From positions 310,001 to 374,000 of the forward strand of contig NW_026867184.1 of NCBI RefSeq assembly GCF_026571515.1: a DNA stretch of 64,000 nucleotides, in the 5' to 3' direction. The notes below the pieces were generated by a model. The model was given only the letters and a program-made list of their open reading frames with translations, searched no databases and was not told the origin of the DNA. This DNA comes from Ruditapes philippinarum. Taxonomy: Eukaryota. Made by a program: the position numbers and the translations under genes. Positions 1-58,965 of the stretch are shown here, one piece after another. Position 1 is the first letter of the stretch, and each line of letters begins with the position of its first letter.

Positions 1-1392
1 ACTCGGCCCCAACTCGTCCCCTATATTCTATTAATATTTGTTTTTCATATATTTCATAAATTATTATAGACTGTTAAAATAATATATTATAAAATTACTG
101 AATTGGACATATTTTGACGCTTTTTGTATGCGAATATTTGGAGTTTTTTTTATTTAATAATAAGTATATATATGCATAATTCTGATTAAATTACATACAG
201 AAAAAAAAACACAAAGACGATCAATAGCAATAACATTTAATGTATAAAAACATGTTTCATATGCAATGATAAAATATACTCGTAATTTATACATTCAATA
301 TATTGACTTGTATTATACATACACCGTTCACATGCAGTCTATAATCCAACAATATGGAATTGTTGTGCTTGTGGTATTTTTAGTTTCAACTTTCGGCATT
401 TTCTATATGGGTGGTTCCAATATTCCTACTTGAATAATGTTGAATCACCCTTAGGATATATGTTAGTATCTGTGATACGCAGGCTTCATAACCTCTGATC
501 CCCTTTCAATATTCCATTTTATTTAGTTCTGCCCATTGTTTTCTCGTTTAGGGCACACGCTTTTTATTACTTGGGGACCATACGCCGCTTTTCATGGAAT
601 GGCACGGAAGTGTCACATTGAAGGTTCCATGATAACCGCCGTATGAACACATCTGCTGATGTTTCTAAATTCAAAATTTTACTGTTTCACGTTTAAATGT
701 TGAAGAAAAGGCAAAACGAATATTGAGCTGATGTTGTGATGAATGTGTAGCCAGCTTCAAATCCCAGGTCGACATTCCAAGCAGAGACAAAACGAAGGAC
801 GAGTTGGATGTTGTGCTTTATAGTCAGCTTCACAACCCAGCTCGACATTTTAAAAAGAAACGAAACACGAATGTTTAATTGACACGGTCCTTCTATAATG
901 AGATCAATACGCACCGACATAAAGTTTTTAGCACTTCTAATTTCTTTTAATCTGTCGTCAGTCTTTAATCCATTAAGTGAGTCGGTAAAAATCAAAGAGT
1001 TAAACCTAATTTTAGTTTTAATTATCATTAAAACTCCGATGAATTAAACATTAACTGAATTTTTGCAAACTTACCTGGTTAGTTTGACATCAAAGCTATG
1101 CACGTGCGCTTAGATAAAGATCATTAAAATTTAACGTAAAAAAGACGTTATTTTATTAATATTTCGATATATCAATCAAATTCATTATTAATTTTACATA
1201 AAAGAAATATTTAAAGACATTGATTTACAACATAAAAGTGACGAATAGATCGAAAGTAGGGGACGAGTTGATCATATTAGGGACGAGTTGACTCTTTGAG
1301 GACGAGTTGACCAAAAATAGGGGACGAGTTGACCAAAAAGGTGACGAGTTGACCAGAGGACGAGTTGACCAGGGGACGAGTTGACCGGATTG
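1..1392. mobile_element. Non-autonomous DNA transposon with subterminal GGACGAGTTGACC repeats (left end runs off the window)
   Basis: About 7 copies of (G)GACGAGTTGA(CC) at 1258-1386 ending GACCGGATTG; the reverse-complement motif CAACTCGTCCCCTA is at 10-23. Superfamily not determined. Confidence 0.6.
568..700 (+). repeat. Dispersed repeat, second copy at ~58097-58235
   Basis: TACTTGGGGACCATA..TTTTCATGGAAT..GTGTCACATTGAAG.TTCCATGATAACCGCC..ACATCTGC.GATGTTTC is present at both loci. Confidence 0.75.
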
Positions 1393-2280: not shown

Positions 2281-2349
2281 GGTTTAAGTTTAGCAAGCAC
2301 GCGTGATATCTTAACTGGGTAGGAAGTTGCCTATCTCTGTTATCTATGT

Positions 2350-3407
2350 CTCTGTCCTAAGCAACCGATCCCAATCTTTAGTCTTGGAAGGGGTAAATTC
2401 AGATACAGTATCTGTAGAATCCGGCGTCCCACAGGGCTCAGTCCTTTGCCCGAGTCTGTTCCTTTCCTACATTAATGACATCCCAGAGGGTCTCAATGCC
2501 TACCTTGCCATCACCAACAAGTCTGACTGTTCCACCCTACAAGCTGACCTCGACAAACTAGCTGTCTGTGAAGAGAAATGGAAAATGTCATTCCACCCAG
2601 ACAAATGCCAAGTCCTCACCATCTCCAAGAAAAGAAGCCCCATCTGCTACAACTACACTCTTCATGGTCATACTCTAGAGCAGCTAAATACCTCGGATGC
2701 ACCCTGAATAACAACCTAGACTGGGGCCAACATATAAATAACATCTGTAACAAAGCTAACCGTACCACAAGCTTCCTTTTAACATCGCCTCTACTTCCAC
2801 CAAAGAAACAGCCTACAAAGCTCTATTCCGCCCCACAGTTGAGTATGCAAGCACTGTCTGGGACACCCACGAGAAGGGAGACATACACCGTCTAGACATG
2901 GTCCAACGACGTGCTGCACGGTATTTTACTATGTTAAGGCAAGTATCACAACAGGTCCAGCGTCATAGACATGCTTGCAGACCTGGAATGGAAATCACTA
3001 CAAGAACGTCGTAAGAAGGCCAGACTGATCATGCTCAACAAAGTCATCAACAACAAGGTCTAGACAACTCACAACTCATACCCTCCAACTCCACATCTAC
3101 AAGAAGTACACATAACATATCCTTCAAGATCCCCTACTGCCGTACACAATATCGTCAACAATCCTTCTTCCCACGCACCATCGAAGACTGGAACAGCCTC
3201 CCTCCGGATGCTACGTCAGCCGGTACAGTTGAGTCATTTCGTAATCATCTGTCCCAACTCTATATCTAAACCACACTCTTGTCCGTTTTTTACCTGCACT
3301 GTATATATTCCTCACTATTTTTACTCTTTCTTTCCCTCTTGCGCATTAACCTGGCAAGTAAACTTAAGTTAGTTGAAGGTGGCCAGTATATTGGAAGAAG
3401 AAGAAGA
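2350..3407 (+). mobile_element. 5'-truncated, decayed CR1/L2-group LINE (RT C-terminal part and 3' UTR)
   Basis: SGVPQGSVLCPSLFLSYINDIP, WKMSFHPDKC, KYLG..L.WGQHINNIC motifs across frameshifts; the (Y/F)ADD segment is deleted; ends in a (GAA)n tail at ~3394-3407. Confidence 0.9.
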
Positions 3408-24230: not shown

Positions 24231-24339
24231 CATTTACTGGATTCTGACATTTCACTATGCCAATTTTGAACGAACTGATCTTTATCATTGTTTATGTAGA
24301 ACCTTTACAGTAAAGTAAGTGACTTACCTATAAAAATGC

Positions 24340-25772
24340 AAACCCAGCAATTATAGACCAATCTCCCTCACATGCATAGCGTCCAAATTGATGGAGCACA
24401 TCTTAGTGTCCAATATTATGTCCTTTTATGATAAACACAACATCCTTAGCCCCTATCAACATGGCTTCAGGTCAAAACGGAGTTGTGAGTCCCAGCTAGT
24501 AAGCTTCTCCCAGGAAATTCATGACAATCTTGAAAGTGGCCAACAAACTGATGTCATAGTCATGGATTTCAGTAAGGCATTTGATAAGGTGGACCATCAC
24601 AAACTTGTGAGTAAACTAGAAAGATTTGGTATAAGTTATGAGGTTACAAATTTGGTCCATTCCTTCCTTAAGTCACGCTCCAAGCAAGTTGTAGTTGAAG
24701 GTCAAAAATCAGGAATACTACCAGTTCTCTCAGGTGTCCCCCAAGGCTCGGTATTAGGTCCCTGCCTTTTCCTTTCTTACATAAATGACCTCCCAGATAG
24801 TGTCAAAGGTAAGGTGAGACTCTTTGCAGATGATACTGTTGTCTACCTAACCATCAGATCTAAACAAGATGCCCAAACCCTCCAAGATGACCTTCATGCT
24901 TTAGAAAAATGGGAAAAAGACTGGTCCATGGAGTTCAACCCTGACAAATGTGAAGTTCTCAGGATAACAAGAAAAAGGAACCCTGTAATATTTCCTTATA
25001 CCCTCCATAACATTCAACTAAACTCAACTCAAGAAGCGAAATACTTAGGAGTCACTATTAGTCAAGACCTTTCATGGACCAAACATATAAACAACATCAC
25101 ATCTAAAGCAAATAACTCCCTCAGATTCATTAGAAGAAATGTTAAAACTCCAAATAAAAAGATAAAAGAAACTGCATATAAGACCTATGCTAGACCTCAG
25201 GTTGAATATTGCTCCATAGTTTGGCATCCTTGGCAGAAATACTTAATATATAAGATAGAGCAAGTACAAAGATCAGCTGCTAGATACATTTTTAATGATT
25301 ACGACTATACAAGTAGTGTCTCAAAAATGATAAATGATCTTAATTGGCAAACCCTTGAACAGCGTCGAAACATCAGTGCTGTAACCTACTTGTATAAAAT
25401 CCAAAACAACATTGTTTTTGTTGACCACCAACACCTTACTCAAACAAGAAATCTGAACTACCTGATACCCTACTCGAGGACACAATATCATCAAAATTCA
25501 TTCTTTCCTAGGATCATACCTCTTTGGAATAGCCTTCCCCTAACTGTTCAGTCTAGCCCCAGTTTAAACATCTTTACTGAGAGGCTTGACCCATTCTATA
25601 AATTCTAAACTGTACACTATGTCTTTTAAATTAATAGTCTTGTAGAACTTTTATTCTTTTAACTTTTAATTTGCATATAAATAAATTCTTTTATTAACAG
25701 TTCCCTGACAACGCGCCTGCTAGTCATAATCAGAATTGATTGTTAAGCAGTATAATGTAGATGTAGATGTAA
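24340..25772 (+). mobile_element. 5'-truncated CR1/L2-group LINE with an uninterrupted RT domain
   Basis: NYRPISLTCIASK, QHGFR, DFSKAFDKV, GVPQGSVLGP, RLFADD and KYLGV in ORF 24388-25608; 3' tail (TGTAGA)n. Confidence 0.95.
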
Positions 25773-36500: not shown

Positions 36501-39500
36501 TGAACACTTCCACGTACCCATTTATGGCAAGTTTCTGTAACAAATTACCAATGATGTGAGTCAAAGGCAAGAAAGGGGGTATATGTGTCGTCCGACATTT
36601 TTTGTTTTTAATTACAATTTGTCCGTTGTTCATCGGCCGTCTGTGCGTCCGTATTCAGTTTATTACAAACGAATTCTCCTCATAAATACTGGGCCAATTA
36701 ATTAACTAAATTGTTCAAATGGTTCTGCTCCATTTAACATCTGGGACAGAAATGTAAAATATATAGATATTTACATCTGCATTTTTCTCAAGTTCTATAG
36801 GTCTAAGACAAGGCGAGAATTTATCGCCGGTGCTCTTCTCAATCTACCTAAATGCCCTAGAGTTAGCCCTTAATAAGGACAATAATGGAGTCACATTTGA
36901 CGCTACAACCCAGTTTTTAAAAATATTAATATTACTATATGCAGACGACACGGTCGTAATAGGCGAAAATCAGGAATCATTCCAGTCCTGTCTCAATGAT
37001 TTTCACAAATATTGCGAGGCTTGGAAATAAAATATAAACTTTCAGAAAACTAAGGTAGTTGTCTTTGGCACAAATAAACCCAAGTCATACACTTTCAATA
37101 TAAATGGTCAATCAATCGAAACAGTAACGGAATATAAGTATCTAGATGTTATTTTCTCTAGCTCTGGTTCATTTCTTGCGTGTAGGAAACACCTAGTTTC
37201 ACAAGCAAACAAAGCCATGAATGTTCTATATATGAGAATAAACAACTTTGACCTTCCCTTAGACCTACAAATAAAGTTATTCGACCATACAGTGCTTCCC
37301 ATTCTTACATATGGAAGTGAAATATGGGGGTTCGAAAATTTAAATATCATAGAACAAGTCCATTCCAATTTTTTACGCAAGATTACTAATACCAGAAAAA
37401 GTACTCCTAGGTACATGTTATATGCTGAACTTGGGCGCTATCCTATCGAAATAAACATCAAATCTCGTATGATAAATTTTTGGAATAAACTTATTCAGTC
37501 TAAGGAATCAAAAATTTCATTTATGTGTTACAGGTATATGATACAGTCTAGTTAAAAGTATACTTAACTGTACAGGTAATTCTATTTTATGGTTAAATCA
37601 AAATAATATCCAAGCTAAATGTATTAACAAATTGGTTAAACAAACATTAATCGACCAATATAAACAAGAATGGTTCTCACAACTAGAAAACTCGCATAAA
37701 GGTAGACTCTATGGTAGTTTTAAAAACAGTTTTAATCTAGAATATTATTTAAATATTCTCCCCCACCCCCTTAGATTATCTCTTTTGCATTTCCGAACTG
37801 CTAACCATCGTTTCCCAGTAGAAACGGGTCGTTGGAAACAATCTTTTAAACATCATGAGCAAAGAAAGTGCCAAAAATGTAACTCGGGGGACATTGGCGA
37901 TGAGATGCATTATCTGTTAATATGCCATTTTTTCAGAACTAAAAGAAGACAGCTAATACCAGAGAGATTCTATATTAGACCAAATATACTGAAATTTAAG
38001 ACACTACTTAACACAAATGATAGCCAGACCCTAACAAACCTTAGCTTATATGTTAAATATATCATGAAACAAATTAACGATTGATAACAATTACATGAAC
38101 TGATTTATTTTACATACCTGGTGATTGTTAATCCTTATTATCCCCATCTTTGACTACTGTATGTTCACTGACTTTTTCCTTTTTTTATTGTTGTTAGCAT
38201 ATTAAGAACTCAAAACTTTGTTTTTTCACCGCTTTCAAATAAATACTTCAAATATTGTCCGCTTTCCCCATCGAATACAGAAACACTAAAACACAAAACA
38301 TAATTAATTAGAATATTTTTGATCATGTGGTTACCCATACTAATTATTTATGCTACTGTTCGTTCACATGTTATTGCTTGATACATGTTAAATGTGTATT
38401 ATGTAATCTGTGACAATTGAACATGAAGTGATTTGTATTGTATTGTATTGTATTGTATTGTATATCTTAACATTGAATAAAGTTTGAAAGTAAATATTGG
38501 CATCGTTCCAGGAAATCATTGATTTTCCTTATATGTATATAGTAAAACCTTAAAGATATTTCTTCTCTTAAAGTACAAGAGCTAAAGGTTTGTTTTTGAC
38601 ATGAAACATTATCAGTTAGGACTCTACTAATTTGCTCCAATTATAGCATTGGGTTAAATTGGCCACGTCCCAGGGAATCATTGATTTTTCTTATATGTGT
38701 ATTATATGTGTATAGTGAAAACAAAATTTATCTTCTTCTATTATACTACAAAGGTTTAACCTTGAAAAATTGGTATATTACATTGTCCGGTGGACCTTTA
38801 CAAAAAAATATTTAAATTATAGGCCTTAGGTCAAAATTGACCCGCCCCCAGGGGGTCATTGATTTTCCTTATATGTATATCGTATAAACAAACAAAAAGT
38901 CTTCTTGTAAAAAACGAAAAAAATTAGTGCTAAGATATTTAGCATGAAAAATCTTCTAAAAGGTGTCTATCAAGTTTGTTCAAATAAAAGCCCTGGGGTC
39001 AAAATTGGCCCCGCTCCATATGTATATAGTAAAACCAAACAAAAAACTTATTCTCAGAGTCTTTAACTTAGATATTTGGTATGAAACATTGTGTAGTTGA
39101 TCTTTACCAATTTGTGTTCAAATTATATCCCTGGAATAAAATTTGCAAGTATAAAGAAATAACAAAAAACTTCTTTTACTATGCTAGAGAGACTTTAGCT
39201 TAGATATTTAATGAAACATTGTCTAGTGGACCTTTAGGCCTCAAGGGAATCATTGATTTTCCTTCTATGTTTATAATAAAAAACATAAAAAATCCAATGA
39301 TACTGTAGAGGCTTTATCTTAGATATTTGGTATGCAACATTGTCTGGTTGACCTCTACAAAACTTTTCAAATAATAGCCATCAGGTTAAAATTTGCCCCG
39401 CCCCGGAAAAACATAGATTTCCTTATTTGAATGTAGTAAAAACCTTTTTTAAAAATCTTCTCTAATTATACAAGAGCTAAAGCTTAGTATCCATAGCAAC

Positions 39501-42500: not shown

Positions 42501-45500
42501 GTTACTAAAATTAGAAAATCAGTTTCCGGGAATTGGTTAAGTTTGGAATGAGATATTTCAATGAAACTTGGTGTATTGCAAGTTTATGTAAAGCCTCGCT
42601 TACGATTGCTTTTGGGCCTGATGAGTCAATGTCACTGTTACTAAAAAGGGAAATTAGTTTATGGTCAATAACTAGAGTTTGAAATGAAATATTTCAATGA
42701 AACTTGGTGTAAAGCAAGGTTATGTAAAGACCTTGCTTACGATTGATTTTGGCTTCCTGAGTCAAGGTCACTGTTACTTAAAATATAAAATCGGTTTCCA
42801 GTCAGTAATTAAAGTAACTTGAATGAGATATTTCAATGAAACTTGTTGTATAGAAAGAGCTTATGTGAAGATTTTGCTTGGAAATGCCTTTGGATTCCCT
42901 ATGATCAATAAAAGGTCATAAGAAATAGAAAATTTGTTTCAGGTCTAGAACTTGATTAAGGAATGAGATTTTAATTCCTCTTGAATATTATTTCTACAGT
43001 ATTTGAACGCTTCAATTAGAATTGCATTTTAACCCCATAGGGTTATTGCCATTGTTTTAATGCCAAAGCTAAACTGCACATAGCTTGTATTTATATTCCA
43101 ATGACAACAGTGCATTCAACAGTGGTGGTTATTGAAAACCTGGTTTCGTGGCTTTTTTCATTTTCATTTCTGCGATTCCAAAAACATTCAAAGCTTATTT
43201 TAAGCATATTGGTATATCTTGAAATGGAATTTGTTTAGAGATGTAGATTTTGTTTCACTTTTTCAAAGGTTTAACGATTTAGACAATTGACACTTGCTCC
43301 AGAATGTATCAGCAATTTACATTTAAGAAGTTAATTGTATTGTTTCCAGCTATGTAATTGTTCTATATCATTCTTCGACCTTTTTTAAGTCAATTTATGT
43401 GAACTTCAGTAAATGTTTTAGAAATGTGGTAGACTAATTGTTCTCATGTTAATAGACTATGTCAAACAAATTCTTTTTTTCAGATGGTGTGAAACTTGCT
43501 CAAAGTGGAAAAAAGAACTGTCGGGGGTAAATAGATCAAGGAGTGTAAATTGGGAGAAAACGGAATCATGGAAATGGCCTGACTCTTATGAAAGCATTGT
43601 CGAAGTATTCCTGCCGGGTGACTGGACAAAAAGCAATCCCATACAGTTTTCAGATATATCAACACAGTGTCATATTTGGCTGCAATGTAGGGAATTTCAC
43701 CTGAATAAAACAATAGTTAAAAACGTTAGAGCTGCAAGAAATGAAACATATCATAATATTAGTTTTGAAGCCACTGATATTGAAAAGGCCAAAGCTTTTG
43801 ATGCTTTAAAAGATTTGATAAAAGATAAAGACATCGCAAACGACATTAATGTGAATGAATATTTAAGCAAACTGGATGATATTTATGTGGATGATTTATT
43901 CTATTCCATTGACAAATCTGTACTTGAGGAAATAACAGCTGTATATCATGAAAATCAAAGATCATTAGAACACACATTAAGTGAAATATGTGACCACTTA
44001 GAATCTATAGAGGTGGAAAACAGATATTCTGGTACGGTGTTAGACAGACTTTCAAGGAATTTTAAAAAAAAAGATTCGAAGAGAAGGAAAACAACACCTT
44101 TTACAACTCTTGCGCTTACGTTTGCATTTTTAGGATGTGTATGGTATTATTTTGTACCAAACCACGTATCGTTGAAAGAGTATCATTCTCAAGGTCTAGG
44201 TAAAAATATTCAATTAACTGACGCTTTCTGTTTTTAGTTAAATAAATTAGTATAGCAAAATAAAGGACATTACTTTAAATGATTTGCTAATAACCATACT
44301 TGAAGGGTGTTTAATATGATTACACCTGTTGAAGATTGTTTTTATGCCTTCCAATTCTAAGAATGCTTTCATATATGGGTCGGTTGGTCCGCCGTTCTTC
44401 CGTTAGACCATACCTTGTTCAAACAATGAAGGAGTTGGCATGACTTGTAAGTATAATATCTGATGATTGCGATATTGATATGTCAAAGGCAGGTACAGTC
44501 ACCGTAATATTGACATCAAACTGTTGTTATACTAATCATAAAATAATGCGTTGACCTTCAGATAAAGAAAGGAGATTAGGAGATTAGACGCGACATTAAG
44601 ATACCTTTCATAGATTTTTTTGTTTAAGACGACCGAGATAAAGGTTATAGAACACTTTAATACAGCAAATTCCTTGGAGAGTATGAATTTGACAGGTTGA
44701 AGGATATGTTTAAAATAGAGATTACAATGCTTTACACGACAAAAGCCGATTTACAGTTATCAGATTATGAATTGTGCATGGTTAAATGTCTCACGGGGTC
44801 ATATATGTGTAAAGCGATTCGCAAGACAAGATAGAGGTACACGCAAATATGTTGAAAATAAGTACAGAAAAATTATAATAATATATTAAAATTCTGGCCT
44901 AGGATTTATCGAAATGTTGAAACATTTACAATTTCTTAATGTAATTGTTGACTTTTACTTTTTGCAGACGGATGTGTCTATGAAAACTATACTTTGCCTT
45001 GGATGCAAGATTTACCATTAATAGAGTACGTACGAGACACTAACACTTTAGTTGGGAGACATTGGCTGTTTAAAATGTTAGATAGAAAACTTTTACAAGA
45101 CGAATCATCTGGACGCGGAATAGTCTCTGTTGCAGAATTCGGGTACGGAAAGTCGGCCATAGTTTCCCATTTGCTATGCGCCAGACATGGTGAAAAGGGC
45201 AGAACTTTAAGGGAACACATAGCTGCGTTTCACATATGTAAATACGATGTTTCTAGCACGCAGTCACCCGAGAGGTTTATCAGGCGTTTAGTAGGGTTAT
45301 TTGCAATGAGACTACCGGAATACGGCAATATTGTTTCCATGATGTCCAGTTCCTCTATTTTATATGACAAGGAAAAATGTGCTAAGGAACAAGATGCGTG
45401 CTTTGATCAGGCGTTTAGAATTCCATTTAAAAATATGACATCAGAATATTCTACAATGATTGTGGTAATAGACGCTCTTGATGAATGTTTTCACTTAACA

Positions 45501-48500
45501 AAAAACGAAAATTTTATTTTGAATTTGATATCGACACGACTACGATATTTTCCAAAGTGGGTCAAATTTCTCATAACAAGTAGAGACATAATGCAACTGA
45601 AGTTCTCTAAAAAAAACTAGAGAGATTAAATCTTTTAGCTAACGACTCGACCAATTTCACAATATTCAAAAAAAAAAAAAAAAAAAAAAAAGTATATTGA
45701 AAAGTATTTGAATATTTACAATGAAAAGTCACGATTTTTTTATTCTGATATAAAACAGAAAATACTGGAAAGTGGTGAAGGCAACTTCCTGTACATTATT
45801 CATGCATTGCAATATGTTCAGAGTCCTGACTTTAATGGCAAGTTGCCTAAGCTACCATTTTCATTAGAGGATATATATGAACTTAATTTTGATCGACAAT
45901 TTCAAGGAGGTAATACCTACAGTAATGCTAGACTTATTCTCGAAATTATTTGTACAAGTTTAACTCCTCAAAGTAGAAACGATATATATGACATACTAAT
46001 AAATAGTGAGGCAATCAACATATCATATAAAGATTTTGAACGGGAATTTGAACAACTTTCTTACTTTATAAAGGCGGAAGATGGCGTAATTTTACGCCAT
46101 AAAGCAATACACAGTTGGTTAGTTAATTCAGCCTCCAGCAGATATAAAGTTTCCCTTACAAAAGGACATGAATTAATTTCAAAACATTTGCTTAGAACTG
46201 TGGAGAACAACGGCACTGGTGATATTATTGCGCTAGTAATTCATCTGAGTAACTCAAAAAGTGTTACTCTGCAAAAGACATTTCATTCATTCAATATGAA
46301 TAAGGTGATGTCTTTCAGAGAGAAGGAAGTTCTACATAATCTAATAAGTAAGACTGAGTCTGAAGAAGCGCTTGATTTACTTCTATTTCATCATTCCAAA
46401 GTTGATATAACAGATGAAAATGGAGTAAGTCCGGCATTTCTCGCAGCAGCGAAAGGGCATCTTAAACAGCTAAAATTGTTGCTGCGGAAAGGTGCAAACT
46501 GTGATTTTGCAGTGAATCCTTGTAGGAAGTGTGATACAAAGCTATTTCTACGCGATTTCAAAAAAGATATAGAAGAGATAAAAACAATTTTCTATTCTGG
46601 TTATGGACTTCTTCACATAGCAGTACAGCATAGATCTACAGAAATTGCAAGATATTTGATTGAAGAAACAAGCATTTCTTTAAATCTTGTAAACGTTATT
46701 GGGCAGCGGCCAATTGATATAGCTTGCGAGATGGGAAATATTGATATATTGAAAATATTTATGTCTAGAAAGTCAAATATAATTGACGACAATTGTTTGT
46801 ATTTTGCGTCCAAAAAAATTCACATTTTAATATCGTTAAACAAATTTAGACTCAGGATTTAAACCGAGTTGCATATCCAACAGAACTGCTGAAAGGGAAT
46901 TAGGTAAAATAATGAAATCGTGTAACTGCGACGCCTCGCCTTTAGACAATCTGATAAAACCTTTAGACACATGGTGGATTGTCTTTCGAGAAACCTCACT
47001 TCATTATGCGATTCGGTCTGGGGACTCACACATCGCAGAATATATTGCAAAAAAGACGAAGCGTTTAGCAGAGTGTGTTGATTCGTATGGTTATACACCT
47101 TTCTTACTTGCGATCAAGCATGGAAGATACCAGCTTACTAATGGCATGAAAAAAAGAGCAAATATAGATATCTGCTCTTCCTCTGCTTCATTTTTATCTC
47201 GTCAAGACATCGCCGGTTCCGGTACTATAATTGATGAGAAGAGGGAAGATATTTGTCAAGAAGGTGCAACATTTGCCCATTTAATTGCTAAATACAATCG
47301 GGTTAAAATGATTGACCTTTTTGAAAATGACGTCACTCTGAAATGGAATATAGCAGATAGTTCTGGCAATAAGCCTATACACTATGCAGCTAGTCACAGT
47401 AGTACGGATTTCATCAAGTTCATGTCCTTGAAATTCGGAAGGACTGCTTTTGAGGAAGAGTCAAAAAATAAATCAACGGCGTATCATTCTGCAGCAATAA
47501 GCTGTTCAGAGGCGAGTTTAAGGGCACTTACTAATGCATTTAGTGATAATTTAATAGATTTCAAAGATAATTGCAATAGGAGCGTATTGCATTATGCTCT
47601 CATGTGCGAGGCTAAGAGCTGGTCGAACTTTCCTCAAAATAATCTAACCCTGCGTTGTCAAAAATATTTACTAAAGCTAACAAATATATCACATGTTGAT
47701 TGCAATGAGCAAAATTTACTTCATTATATCGTTATGTATGGGCACGAAAAACTGCTTCATTATCTTCAGAAAATGAAACCAAAGCAATACAAACAAATGC
47801 TACATTCAAAAAATCGATTAAAGTTAACTCCAGTCGAATACATTTTGTATTATGCACCAAATGATGAGATTTTGTTCTCATCTACTGTTTTCAAACAATT
47901 CAGTAATGAAAGCATAAATACACAGTCTTGGGAAATACGACGGTCGTTGATCCCATGGGAAAAATGTTTAATCAATATTCAAAAATTATTTACGCAGGAG
48001 GAGACCAAAGAACTTCTTTTAGAATACTTCTATGCTATTCTTGTTAAAAGCCCGTTTTTGTCGAAAACTCTTTTACTTAATCGTGTTTTTGCAAATATCT
48101 CGTTTATTGAGGCCTTAAATATCAAGGGGCATATAATTCATGGTATGTTTTGGGCAAAACAGTTCAAACGTGAGCACATTTTTCAACAATTATTAAAGAT
48201 AATTTCCGATGACAATCCCACGCTACTTTTCAGTTGTGGGCAACCTCTAATTCGTTCTCCTTTGCATTATATTGCATTCTCTGCTCCTTGGACTTACAAT
48301 GACACATTGTTTGATGTTATCAATAATACCTTTGCTGTAGGAAGACGCATTAAGAATTTGAAGTGCAGTACCATAGATGGATTTAACCTTCTTCACTACT
48401 CTATTATTGGTGGTTTTATAAACCTTACGGATTTTTTAATGAAAAAGAAATTATCTTTGGTAACTCAAAATGTTTCTGTTGTTGATATACTTTATATGAC

Positions 48501-49875
48501 TGTGTTTGCGAAGTTTAAACCGTATATTTCTAGTGATAAATTAGTTACCTATTCTCTCCTTGATAGATTTTTATCGGATTTCATTAGAGACAGAAAATCG
48601 GATTTGAATGCAAATGTCTTCTGTAGTAACCATTCTAAGGGTTTGTCTTTAGTGCATTTCTTCGCTATAAATGGAATGGCAAGAACAATAGAAACAGTTA
48701 AGAATTTATTTGGGGGTGAAATAACACAATGTCGAAACGTTCATAATTTTACTGCAATGTTTTTTGCCGAGTTGTTTGGCAGAACAGCGGTCGAATCTTC
48801 ATTACCAAAGGAAAATTCTTACATTTTCCCTGAGAGAAGTGCTGTAGAATTTCTTTTACTCAATATCTATAATAACTTTCCTCAAATGAGGAAACAGAAT
48901 CCTTTCCGTTGCATTACTTTAAGGAGAATGATCACCATGAAGGATAGAGCACTTATTAAAAACTATCAATGTCTAAAAGGATTTTATTATATGTATTTTA
49001 TGACTGTTAACGATTTCTTAATTCATAATCTCGTGTTTGCAAGAGAAGGCTTACACTTAAGTGAAAAACTTATGCTACAGTATCTAGAGATAAAAAAGTT
49101 GTTCTATGCCTCTTTAAAAAGTGAAATTATATCAAACTGTAGTAGATTTACCCGATACCTAAGTGAAATCATAAAGATACTTAATGAACTAAAACTTTGG
49201 AGTGGTATAAGTAATGGGTATCTTTCCTGGCAAAGTGAGTATGATTTTTTGAAAAATATATACAATGCATTAGATTTACCCTACGATAAAAGTATGATTT
49301 CATTAGTACAAGATGGCATGAATAGTGATTGTTCAACTTTTAATTTTCGACATATTTGGAACACAATGCAATATCTGGAAAGAACTCTTAGGACAGTAGT
49401 TCAGAATGTTCAAGATATTACAATTTTGGTGGCGCTTTTGGACCAAAAAGATTTCATAAGAATTCAAAGTATGCCACCTGGGTTTAATGGTTTACAGCCG
49501 CATTTTCAAGACTTTGTGTGTGGATATAGATTTTCCTTATGCCATGGATGCCCATTACGTTTATTGAAGGGAGCAGTAAATAACATAAATCGTTTTCGGT
49601 ACCTGAACGTTATTAAATCAACTACTACATACAAACATATTGATGGAGTGAGACTTAGAAGTAGTCCAATGTTTATGAGCAAATCTGAAGTTACTAGGCT
49701 AGAAAAGAAACGGAAATTCATATACAAAATGATGCACAAAACAAAGAAAAGGCAGAAGTGGCTATTAGGAAACTTCAAAAGTGAAAGAAATGGGATTTGT
49801 AAAAGCCAAACTAGCAATGAAAATGAAAGATATAAAAAGAGTTTGTTATACAATATTAGGATACCATTGATTTAA
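30525..49875 (+). CDS. CXorf38-like (HEPN-type) domain - TM helix - NACHT NTPase (TANC/NPHP3 type) - ankyrin repeat protein, ~1,940 aa; frameshifted in this assembly
   Basis: Coding exons 30525-30721 (phase 2), 43484-44199 (phase 1) and 44968-49875 join in frame at canonical GT-AG sites. Motifs: CxxxC..CxxCxxWK, W..W.WP, RNETYH; TM FTTLALTFAFLGCVWYYFV; VGRHWLF, Walker A AEFGYGKS, AFHIC, Walker B IVVIDALDEC, FLITSR, SGEGNFLY; ankyrin repeats (G.SPAFLAAAKGH, LLHIAVQH, TSLHYAIRSGD, GYTPFLLAIKHGR, GNKPIHYAA). Indels at A-runs near 45609-45691 and 46812-46847. Confidence 0.85.
31790..32003 (+). mobile_element. tRNA-derived SINE with a Meta-type core, 5'-truncated, inserted in the DIRS relic
   Basis: B-box-like GGTTAGAATCC, core GAGGAAGCTATCCAGCTAGCTTACGGAACGTTGGTGGTTCTACTCAGGTGCCCG, tail GTGTCGGTGTGACGTAAAAC + (AAAAC)n. 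Family assignment is from recognition of the core sequence. Confidence 0.8.
32525..33000 (+). repeat. ~160-bp tandem repeat array (3 copies), HINE/satellite-related
   Basis: GCACAAATA.TCACAATAATAAGACG.TATGTC..CCCTACCTCCAAG(GTCAAG)GTCACACTTAGAGGTCAAAG repeated. Confidence 0.85.
35012..36607 (+). mobile_element. Helentron/HINE-like element with ~130-165 bp central tandem repeats
   Basis: TTTTTATATGCCCCCCC..stem..(GGTC)n head; >=7 units of TGACCCCTATTGATTTTGGGGTCACTAGGTCAAAGGTCAAGGTCA; 3' AAGGGGGTATATGTGTCGTCCGACATTTTTGTT. Confidence 0.85.
36022..36258. mobile_element. Nearly perfect palindromic MITE nested in the HINE array
   Basis: ~100-bp arms TGAGCCGCGTCACGACAAAA..GCGACCAGCATGGATCCAGACCAGCCTGCGCATCCGCG and their reverse complement; TA on both flanks. 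Confidence 0.9.
36608..39843 (+). mobile_element. Second HINE-like element, interrupted by a LINE
   Basis: Head GTCCGTTGTTCATCGGCCGTCTGTGCGTCCGT; ~170-bp units CCCAGGGG.TCATTGATTTTCCTTATATGTATATAGT.AAAAC from 38500-39480; CCATAGCAACCAGTGACTT minisatellite; 3' GTGAGCGATATTAAGGCCATCCTGGCCCTTTTGTT. Confidence 0.7.
36795..38488 (+). mobile_element. 5'-truncated, decayed RTEX-like LINE
   Basis: GLRQGENLSPVLFSIYLN, LLYADD, PILTYGSEIWG, AELGRYP, FRTANHRFPVETGRW..CQKC..GDEMHYLLIC; in-frame stops; (ATTGT)n and AATAAA 3' end. Confidence 0.9.
40390..40542 (-). mobile_element. Possible Gypsy gag N-terminal relic
   Basis: MASSELPTPQTFKVDG../..SAWDNYIKRFDYYIQVAGIT resembles Gypsy gag starts; short and frameshifted. 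Confidence 0.45.
42041..43165 (+). mobile_element. Helentron/HINE-like element
   Basis: Sub-TIR AACCAGATTTTC / GAAAACCTGGTT, (GGCG)n microsatellite, 4 units of GAGATATTTCAATGAAACTTGGTGTA..GATTGCTTTTGG. Confidence 0.75.
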
Positions 49876-56815: not shown

Positions 56816-58965
56816 ATGGACTTTGTCGGATATATTCTCATATTAACTGTTGGTGTTTTTGGCATCATTTGCTGTATAGGATCGGAACAGAATGGTAACA
56901 TCATGATCTATTTCTTACATCTTTCATTTCTACTGTTCAGGTTGATGATACTTTGCGTAAAAAGATCACGAAACAATTCATCTCATTACTGAAACCAGTA
57001 CTGACTGGTTACGGAATAAATGCTATTAATTAAAAGTGTTTAATATATGCGATTTTTAAAGTTCAAATAACCAAAACATCGGGAACGTTGACTAGTTTAA
57101 TATTTAAGACATAATTCTATGTAACTTACTTTAAAACTGATAGAAAGCAAACGGATTCTTTACATAATTCCAGGCAGGTGCACGTGTAATACGTTCCGAT
57201 GTCCGATGGATCGTGTAAATTCCGGAAGCTGTTATTCTTCGTCACTTCCGGGTGGCTGGGGAGTTCGCTGTTGCAAGCCATATTGTAAATGCAAGCATTC
57301 TTGTGAAGCAGACGAGACTGACGAAGGGAAGTTTGAAACGCTAGCAGAAAATAAATCAGTGACGTCACAAAACTGGCATCTAGTCAACATAGACAAGAGA
57401 GACCATTGTCCAGAAAATACAACACTGTGTTGTCCAAAATGTAAATGCCAAAGAGGCGTTTGTAATAAAAAAGAAATCAAAGCCAGAAAAAAGAGTTGTG
57501 GAGATAAAGTAAGTAATTTAAAACACCTGGATTCAATGTAACTATGTTTAACAAAATAGTATCGGTCTCAGCGTTGTTTATCGACTAATTAATACCGGTT
57601 TGGAGTTTGGATGCATAGGAATTGGCCACGAAGGCCATAAATGTTTCCTTCTTTTTCTTTGGAATGTCATATAAATGAAGATAAGATGTACTTTAATTCC
57701 CATTAATTTGGTACACTTATATTTTACCTAACTATATATTTCTTTTGTTTTATTATTTTTTAATGTTTTTTATGACAAACTGAGAAGTTAATTTTCTTCA
57801 AATGTTCACGTCTTTCGGAAAAAGTAGCTTTATACATGGATGGGTATAGTCTCTCCTAGTCAAAATATTTTGACGTCCTAAACTAGATTCTGAGAGATCT
57901 TTTTTCTATGTCGGAATCTAGATTTCAATGATAAGATTTTAAACATGCATAAAAAAGCAGAATTATCTCAACTCGAACTAAGTCTCCAGCATATTTTAAT
58001 GTATTCTGATTAATTGATACACATATTACAAAATAAATTTCTATGTTTAAAATTCTTTCAAAATTCCATTTTATTCAGTGTCACTACACGTATTTTTACT
58101 TGGGGACCATATGCCGTTTTTCATGGAATTGCACTAATTAATGTGTCACATTGAAGCTTCCATGATAACCGCCACATGAAAACATCTGCGGATGTTTCAA
58201 AATTCATTATTTTACATGTACCACATTAAATGTTGAGTTCCCCATAAGCCGACGCTAGGGTGCGTTAATACCACTCCTCTTAATAAAAGCGATGGATAAC
58301 TCTAGAAATAAAACCGGCAACACTATAGTAATTGTGGCACTACAAATTTCAAGAGTTCTCTTAGCATGTGCTTGTAGATTAAATAAATGCAAGAATCTTA
58401 AACAATATGATGTCTATAACAATATACATATATTGAATAACAAAAGGCAATTTTTGCAACAAGATAAGAATCAGAGTATACAACATCAGGCCCGCTATCC
58501 GCAATATTTAACATGTTATATAATAAATGAATATTGTCGCTTTGTCTTATTCATTTCATTTGAGAAATAACCATTTTGTCTTTTTACTTTCAGCACAAAC
58601 TATGTTGTCAACCGCAATCAACGTTGTTCCGTCCAGTGCCCGGATGTAAAGACAACGAACTTCCTTTATCATTTAGCGGAAGTGACCATTTATACGGACT
58701 ATGTCAGTGTAAGAAAGAGTGTGAAATGCACGAAGCTTTTTTAGACCACAACACGTGTGGAGAAAACAGAGACATGTGTTGTAAATTATGCGCATGCAAA
58801 CCAGAGTGTGATTCTTTCGATATAGATATAGGTCAAGGTCTTTGTGGCTACCAACTGCAGCAATGTTGTCGCGCATGCGTCTGCAAGACGCCGTGCAACA
58901 AACCAGAAGAACTGCTTGGACCAGAGGGGTGTTTTTATGGTGAAACGGTTTGCTGCGTAACATGA
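56816..58965 (+). CDS. Secreted cysteine-rich protein with six tandem defensin-like (CxC-x3/4-C-xn-C-xn-CC) modules, ~261-271 aa
   Basis: Exons 56816-56894 (signal peptide MDFVGYILILTVGVFGIICCIGS, phase 1), 57144 (or 57174)-57508 (phase 0) and 58594-58965 join in frame at GT-AG sites with no stops. Confidence 0.85.

Follow-up and report, generated by a model that had tools for sequence, protein, structure and literature searches.

We examined a 64,000-nucleotide stretch of the genome of the clam Ruditapes philippinarum (contig NW_026867184.1, positions 310,001 to 374,000; hereafter ‘the window’, numbered from its first letter) and describe a three-exon gene on its + strand, at 56816–58965, that encodes six tandem cysteine-rich modules and has homologs in venerid clams. 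The product is likely secreted and likely N-glycosylated, and its modules are predicted to adopt a trans-defensin fold. Taken as a whole, the reading that we prefer, tentatively and at slightly less than even confidence, is that the uncut chain is multivalent and binds or inhibits extracellular enzymes or microbial surfaces.

Gene structure, splicing and homologs

The reading frame is open from ATG 56816 to TGA 58965 across GT-AG junctions (261 codons when spliced) and lies in AT-rich DNA of animal type (GC 0.28–0.43). The spliced protein corresponds to residues 34–294 of XP_060578082.1, a R. philippinarum model called ‘keratin-associated protein 5-4-like’, a name most likely owed to its cysteine content. 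That model starts at an ATG 33 codons upstream (56717), and the Mercenaria ortholog P0005 begins at the Met equivalent to 56816. An earlier reading of this DNA (the ‘initial annotation’) had proposed six modules behind a signal peptide; their positions and their spacings, given below as residues between successive cysteines, were confirmed.

56816–56894, 57174–57508, 58594–58965 (+): three-exon gene, frame open from ATG 56816 to TGA 58965
56816–56894 (+): exon 1, carrying the ATG and a hydrophobic leader that is likely a signal peptide; ends in phase 1; Met matches the start of ortholog P0005
56895–57173 (+): intron 1, 279 nt, GT-AG, phase 1; acceptor 57174 agrees with P0003 and P0005
57179–57274 (+): module 1, spacing 1,4,9,12,0, with G-x-C4, lacking Arg at C2+1 and Glu at C3+4
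57284–57433 (+): module 2, spacing 1,3,34,6,0, with a 34-residue C3–C4 insert
57416–57424 (+): N-glycosylation sequon, three residues past C4 of module 2
57440–57508 and 58594–58608 (+): module 3, spacing 1,4,11,6,0, interrupted by intron 2
57509–58593 (+): intron 2, 1085 nt, GT-AG, phase 0; joint 57508>58594 present in X1 and X3 contigs
58609–58701 (+): linker, likely a decayed seventh module, with one Cys in a C-x3-E context (58645) and another Cys position (58693–58695) at which the window allele has Tyr
58702–58782 (+): module 4, spacing 1,3,11,6,0
58789–58869 (+): module 5, spacing 1,3,11,6,0
58876–58956 (+): module 6, spacing 1,3,11,6,0, best conserved, modelled as a three-strand defensin-like fold
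58963–58965 (+): stop codon

A relaxed module pattern scanned over all six frames of the window gave four matches, every one inside this gene, and 100 local shuffles gave no match at all; only four of the six modules were matched because module 2 exceeds the pattern length and an intron interrupts module 3. The gene is present in a single copy in the window. Its leader is hydrophobic (best Kyte-Doolittle 11-mer 2.8), in agreement with the proposed signal peptide. An optional acidic pro-piece ending in SKR had also been proposed; it requires an alternative intron 1 acceptor at 57144, which adds 10 residues including SKR, whereas the NCBI model and the Mercenaria ortholog use 57174 and lack that motif.

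Read evidence was drawn from four of 24 runs (X1, X3, X21 and X23), of which X1 and X3 are presumed to be RNA. The joint 57508>58594, with GT..AG ends, occurs in contigs of X1 and X3, which come from two studies, and thus supports intron 2; P0012, a homolog from another genome, ends abruptly at the exon 2/intron 2 boundary. In these same X1 and X3 contigs intron 1 is unspliced, and its retention stops the frame after 58 codons; the retention could reflect a detained, regulated intron or an assembly effect. Raw X21 reads cover exons 1 and 2 at 2–3× and the interior of intron 1 at ~0.05×, the exon reads lying mostly in the orientation expected of + strand RNA, and the X21 joints listed include none for intron 1. 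We infer removal of intron 1 from the NCBI model and the ortholog, from the start of exon 2, which is conserved in P0012, and from the drop in X21 depth. X21 has no reads on exon 3 and X23 none on the exons; for X21, low depth or a read filter may explain the gap, and a short isoform ending in intron 2 is possible. Intron 2 also contains, at about 58050–58220, a short interspersed repeat of high copy number; each of the four runs shows very high depth over it and loose ends at either side.

In both studies, the contigs covering exon 3 carry A58694G, which changes Tyr172 to Cys, and linker position 172 is Cys in all five other linker-bearing proteins. The Tyr at 58694 is either a rare allele or a base error of the assembly, and the unpaired linker cysteine of the initial annotation is peculiar to the window allele; Cys172 is the likely partner of Cys156.

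Homolog searches against two sets, of 5.8 billion and 1.84 billion proteins, returned a small family whose named members come from venerid clams only (the search was word-based, with limited sensitivity, and covered proteins of at least 68 residues, so wider or single-module relatives are possible). Ortholog P0005 is 61% identical to the window protein; the Mercenaria paralogs P0007 (XP_053385271) and P0011 (XP_045174501), near-identical to each other, stand at 37–38% identity, and P0008, a C-terminal half, at 32–34%. P0004 is an allele-level copy of exon 3, and P0012 is exon 2. The longest contigs listed for P0007 and for P0011 are equal in length. Three further search matches were rejected as repeat-driven noise.

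All four full-length members (P0003, P0005, P0007 and P0011) follow one plan, in which the leader is directly followed by module 1 with its 12-residue last loop, module 2 with an insert of 30–39 residues, module 3, a two-Cys linker and modules 4–6. Their cysteine-rich regions start with C-x-C and end with CC in every case, which sets the cysteine register. Searched with the two exons, Pfam gave no family at E ≤ 10; across five family members, it gave only a KID-repeat match in one (E 0.15). A sequence search of the PDB gave no match. The proposal of a molluscan multi-domain trans-defensin-like family held up, its fold backed by a model and by weak, nearly uniform structural matches.

Conservation is highest at the two ends of the module array: 18 of 26 non-Cys residues of module 1 and 18 of 21 of module 6 are identical in Mercenaria, as against 9–13 of 21–22 in modules 3–5. 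The module 2 sequon is kept in all five proteins that cover it (P0003, P0005, P0007, P0011 and P0012). Charge is more variable. The net charges of modules 1 to 6 of the window protein are +2, −4, +8, −3, −3 and −2, so that module 3 is cationic and modules 4–6 acidic here, as first described, but module 3 carries only +4, +2 and +2 in homologs and module 4 shifts from −3 to +3 between orthologs; whole proteins are near-neutral, at +1 to +10. The suggested processing at KR sites was not supported: the DKR in module 2 is confined to the window protein and missing from the four other homologs that cover it, no dibasic site is conserved at any module junction, and an R-x-K/R-R site occurs in none of seven proteins. 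Of 22 module junctions, 18 are 2–3 residues long.

Predicted fold and disulfide pattern of the modules

In the trans-defensin superfamily, the last strand of a three-strand antiparallel sheet bears a CC pair from which two of the three disulfides point opposite ways. Modelling, which the initial annotation had put forward for single modules as a way of reading disulfide connectivity, gave one usable result, for module 6: a three-strand defensin-like fold without a helix and, by its alignment ranges, in beta register. Module 1 reached a predicted local distance difference test (pLDDT) score of about 25. Foldseek rows for module 6 were weak but nearly uniformly matches to defensin-fold structures, among them AvBD11 (1–40), and the model superimposed on mammalian alpha-defensins with a root-mean-square deviation of about 1.9 Å across 28–30 residues. 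The evidence on register consists of alignment ranges, all rows coming from one model, of module 6 alone. In these, residues 1..31 of the model align with residues 2..32 of HD6 and 1..32 of HD5, and the CC pair of the model is one residue off the alpha register; from their cysteine numbering, we take the nine other alpha-defensin rows and five hBD1 rows to have the same offset. If the last residues align without gaps, Cys29 of the model falls on Cys30 of HD5 and HD6, the residue that is bonded to the third cysteine (PMC4827351, PMC6936886), which would point to the beta arrangement, 3-6.

Alpha-defensins pair their cysteines 1-6, 2-4, 3-5 and keep nine residues, namely the six cysteines, an Arg-Glu bridge and a Gly (PMC9872612). 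Module 1 had been described as alpha-type in spacing. That description stands for its first three spacers (1,4,9) and its Gly, and fails for the last spacer (12, against an alpha spacing of about 1,4,9,9,0) and for the bridge, as Asn and Arg occupy the Arg (C2+1) and Glu (C3+4) positions; the canonical modules, at 1,3,11,6,0, also depart from the alpha spacing. Gly two residues before C4 is found in module 1 of all five proteins that have this module, and in 11 of 29 modules overall, while a K/R plus E pair occurs in 22 of 29. An alpha-type anionic pro-piece with a single C-terminal mature peptide is missing, six modules following the leader instead.

Some of the evidence weighs against the readings we prefer. 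The full-length protein model failed and the structural scores are weak. In addition, the Mercenaria paralogs P0007 and P0011 carry in module 1 an Arg (C2+1), a Glu (C3+4) and a Gly (C4−2), so that this module shares with alpha-defensins the six cysteines, three of four spacers and the invariant Arg, Glu and Gly. This is the strongest point in favour of the initial annotation, and this signature makes P0007 and P0011 the best candidates for disulfide mapping.

The linker is likely a decayed module that retains a C3-type Cys and one last-strand Cys. A test of which last-strand Cys this might be was equivocal, as the flanking residues favour C5 (alpha-like) and its spacing from the following module favours C6. 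Many sea-anemone peptides of beta-defensin fold begin with C-x-C. In sea anemones, peptides with this fold have the pairing 1-5, 2-4, 3-6 (PMC6627431), so a C-x-C start alone does not imply the alpha pattern. We lean slightly towards beta-type pairing (1-5, 2-4, 3-6) in the clam modules; alpha-type pairing (1-6, 2-4, 3-5) appears unlikely, and some other pairing, or no defensin fold, a little less likely again. It is likewise doubtful that venerids independently evolved, or kept, alpha-type domains (C-x-C, Arg/Lys-Glu, G-x-C4 and 1-6/2-4/3-5), six to a secreted protein.

Possible functions, and other features of the window

The short junctions, the conserved glycan site and the lack of a conserved cleavage site suggest an intact, rod-like, multivalent protein. 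Variable charge combined with strong conservation across genera would not suit a membrane-lytic cationic peptide and would suit modules 1 and 6 bearing binding surfaces that stay constant. Since the fold is used by enzyme inhibitors, including domains of mucins, we tentatively take inhibition or binding of extracellular hydrolases or microbial surfaces as the working mechanism. The leader would direct the chain into the secretory path, where each module is predicted to close three internal disulfides and the linker one. A single C-x-C trans-defensin module, duplicated internally, may have given rise to the array, with one copy decaying into the linker. The product would resemble beads on a string, or a rod, with its best-conserved end modules, 1 and 6, holding the target contacts. 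Its site of action might be mucus or pallial fluid, and its mode that of enzyme inhibitors of beta-defensin fold, multi-domain or acidic ones.

An antimicrobial polyprotein, in which either proteolysis frees the modules or the uncut chain itself traps or kills microbes, the active cationic units being modules 1 and 3, would share the defensin-like fold and could draw on the charge of these modules in the window protein (+2 and +8). Cleavage has been proposed for the closely spaced precursors of multi-MgCRP-I (PMC4558851), and big defensins span anionic to cationic forms (PMC7203481). The clam protein, however, has neither a conserved processing site nor a pro-piece, its junctions measure 2–3 residues, it is represented by one copy in the 64-kb window, and its 61% identity across genera stands against the fast diversification of bivalve big defensins (PMC7203481). 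The antimicrobial role suggested for module 3 is weakened in particular, as homologs do not share its +8 charge. We regard such a role as unlikely; an inhibitor, also suggested in the initial annotation, or a binder would appear to fit better.

We give a slightly smaller chance to a structural or matrix protein (of shell, periostracum, byssus, or egg or sperm coat), in which the modules would form a rigid, cross-linkable disulfide rod with no role in defence. Strong conservation, the kept sequon, regular 29-residue repeats and near-neutral charge would all suit such a protein, as would the low depth of reads from two RNA libraries, of unspecified tissue, if expression is narrow. With the common allele, however, the cysteine count is even, which leaves no free thiol for cross-links, and low-complexity matrix segments are lacking; nor did the name or accessions appear in the three supplementary files of one Mercenaria extrapallial-fluid study (PMC8902148), whose identifiers may differ. 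Least probable in our view is that the modules are not defensin folds at all, and instead follow a different register (C-C-CC-C-C, the array of CRP-I or knottins) or bind metal in the way of a modular metallothionein. The weak scores and failed full-length model are in its favour, and a shifted register can be drawn since modules lie only two residues apart. Against it, the C-x-C start and CC end of the full-length members fix the register, the shifted spacing 11,6,0,2,1 falls outside the CRP-I consensus (PMC4558851), the cysteine patterns are unlike three mollusc metallothionein domain patterns (PMC9781358), and a leader and sequon are present.

No description of this module family, or of its four accessions, was found in openly licensed PMC and bioRxiv texts, subscription journals falling largely outside that coverage; the accessible part of PMC10945409 likewise has nothing on it. 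Alpha-defensins have been described from a few mammals only, and the molluscan trans-defensins covered by a review of big defensins (PMC7203481) comprise big defensins and beta-like short forms; R. philippinarum has four big-defensin genes listed there, two of them without the N-terminal domain, and no multi-module C-x-C form is named in the accessible part of that review. The clam family would add a further architecture, six domains in one chain, that has been hidden in databases under a keratin-associated name. Its C-x-C modules with x6 or x12 last loops offer a direct test of interconversion between the alpha and beta disulfide patterns, using one synthetic module of 31–36 residues. A beta pattern, if true, would be a modest, lineage-restricted addition to clam extracellular biology; an alpha pattern would mean that this topology also exists in a non-mammal, within a protein of several domains, and the view of a mammal-only origin would need revision.

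Elsewhere in the window, 43422–49875 (+) holds a STAND-type gene with DUF4559, an NPHP3_N NTPase, a TANC1-like helix-turn-helix and many ankyrin repeats. It lies in four open frames; the last three directly adjoin one another, with a shift of frame each time, in one case at a poly-A run near 45640. This represents either assembly errors or a decaying NLR-like receptor gene. Fragments resembling long interspersed nuclear elements (LINEs) lie at 24334–25608, 2315–3372 and 37031–38084. Of these, 24334–25605 matches RVT_1 (E 3e-39), the 2315 region resembles that fragment by eye only, and two open reading frames at 37031–38081 have no Pfam match.

Comparison with known systems

Mammalian alpha-defensins (HD5, HD6, HNP1/4, cryptdins and RK-1) share the C-x-C start of the clam modules, and the spacers 1,4,9 of HD5 and Crp14 equal those of clam module 1 (PMC6936886, PMC9872612). 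They differ in their last spacer (9, against 12 or 6 in the clam) and in their anionic pro-piece, where the clam protein has none and carries six modules; they gave no sequence-level match to it.

Beta- and big-defensins have in common with the clam modules the C4-x6-CC end, C3-x3-E, the CC register of the module 6 model and a phase-1 intron before the cysteine region. Beta-defensins have a longer C1–C2 segment (about x6) with an N-terminal helix, whereas in the clam modules a single residue separates C1 from C2, and the module has no other Cys some six residues ahead of C2. A phase-1 intron immediately upstream of the cysteine-rich region is typical of beta- and big-defensin genes (PMC7203481); in the clam gene, intron 1 is in phase 1 and falls two codons before C1, by the splice of the NCBI model and the ortholog. 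Unlike big defensins, the clam protein lacks a hydrophobic N-terminal domain and a pro-domain, with only about 6 residues between leader and C1, and it has six domains plus one decayed domain. Multi-domain precedents are AvBD11, a double beta-defensin of shrimp, named in a title in the reference list of PMC11767717, and mussel multi-MgCRP-I, whose array is different.

Outside the defensins, mollusc metallothionein domains have clustered CxC motifs and 9–14 Cys, as against six Cys per 27–50 residues, about 16% Cys overall, and a leader in the clam protein (PMC9781358). Mussel multi-MgCRP-I is closer in organization, being a bivalve secreted protein of tandem six-Cys modules spaced 2–4 residues apart. 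It differs in its C-C-CC-C-C array, its conserved pro-region ending in KR, its hypervariable modules and in being reported from mussels only; no clam register fits the consensus C(X3-6)C(X1-7)CC(X3-4)C(X3-5)C, and no KR is conserved (PMC4558851).

The fold of the cnidarian amylase inhibitors helianthamide and magnificamide is that of enzyme inhibitors and also forms domains of larger mucins (PMC10604346). These and the other cnidarian beta-defensin-fold peptides (APETx/BDS) have no sequence similarity to the clam protein, which lacks the helianthamide binding motif. Clams are not known to have a venom apparatus. The tick carboxypeptidase inhibitor resembles the clam protein in architecture, being a multi-domain secreted inhibitor of two beta-defensin-like domains, but has longer C1–C2 spacing; it was not among the structural rows, and the clam proteins gave no Pfam match to any family beyond the KID-repeat hit described above. 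By the sequence features tested, the clam protein falls outside the alpha-, beta- and big-defensin families, and we propose that in how it works it resembles a multi-domain protein of trans-defensin fold.
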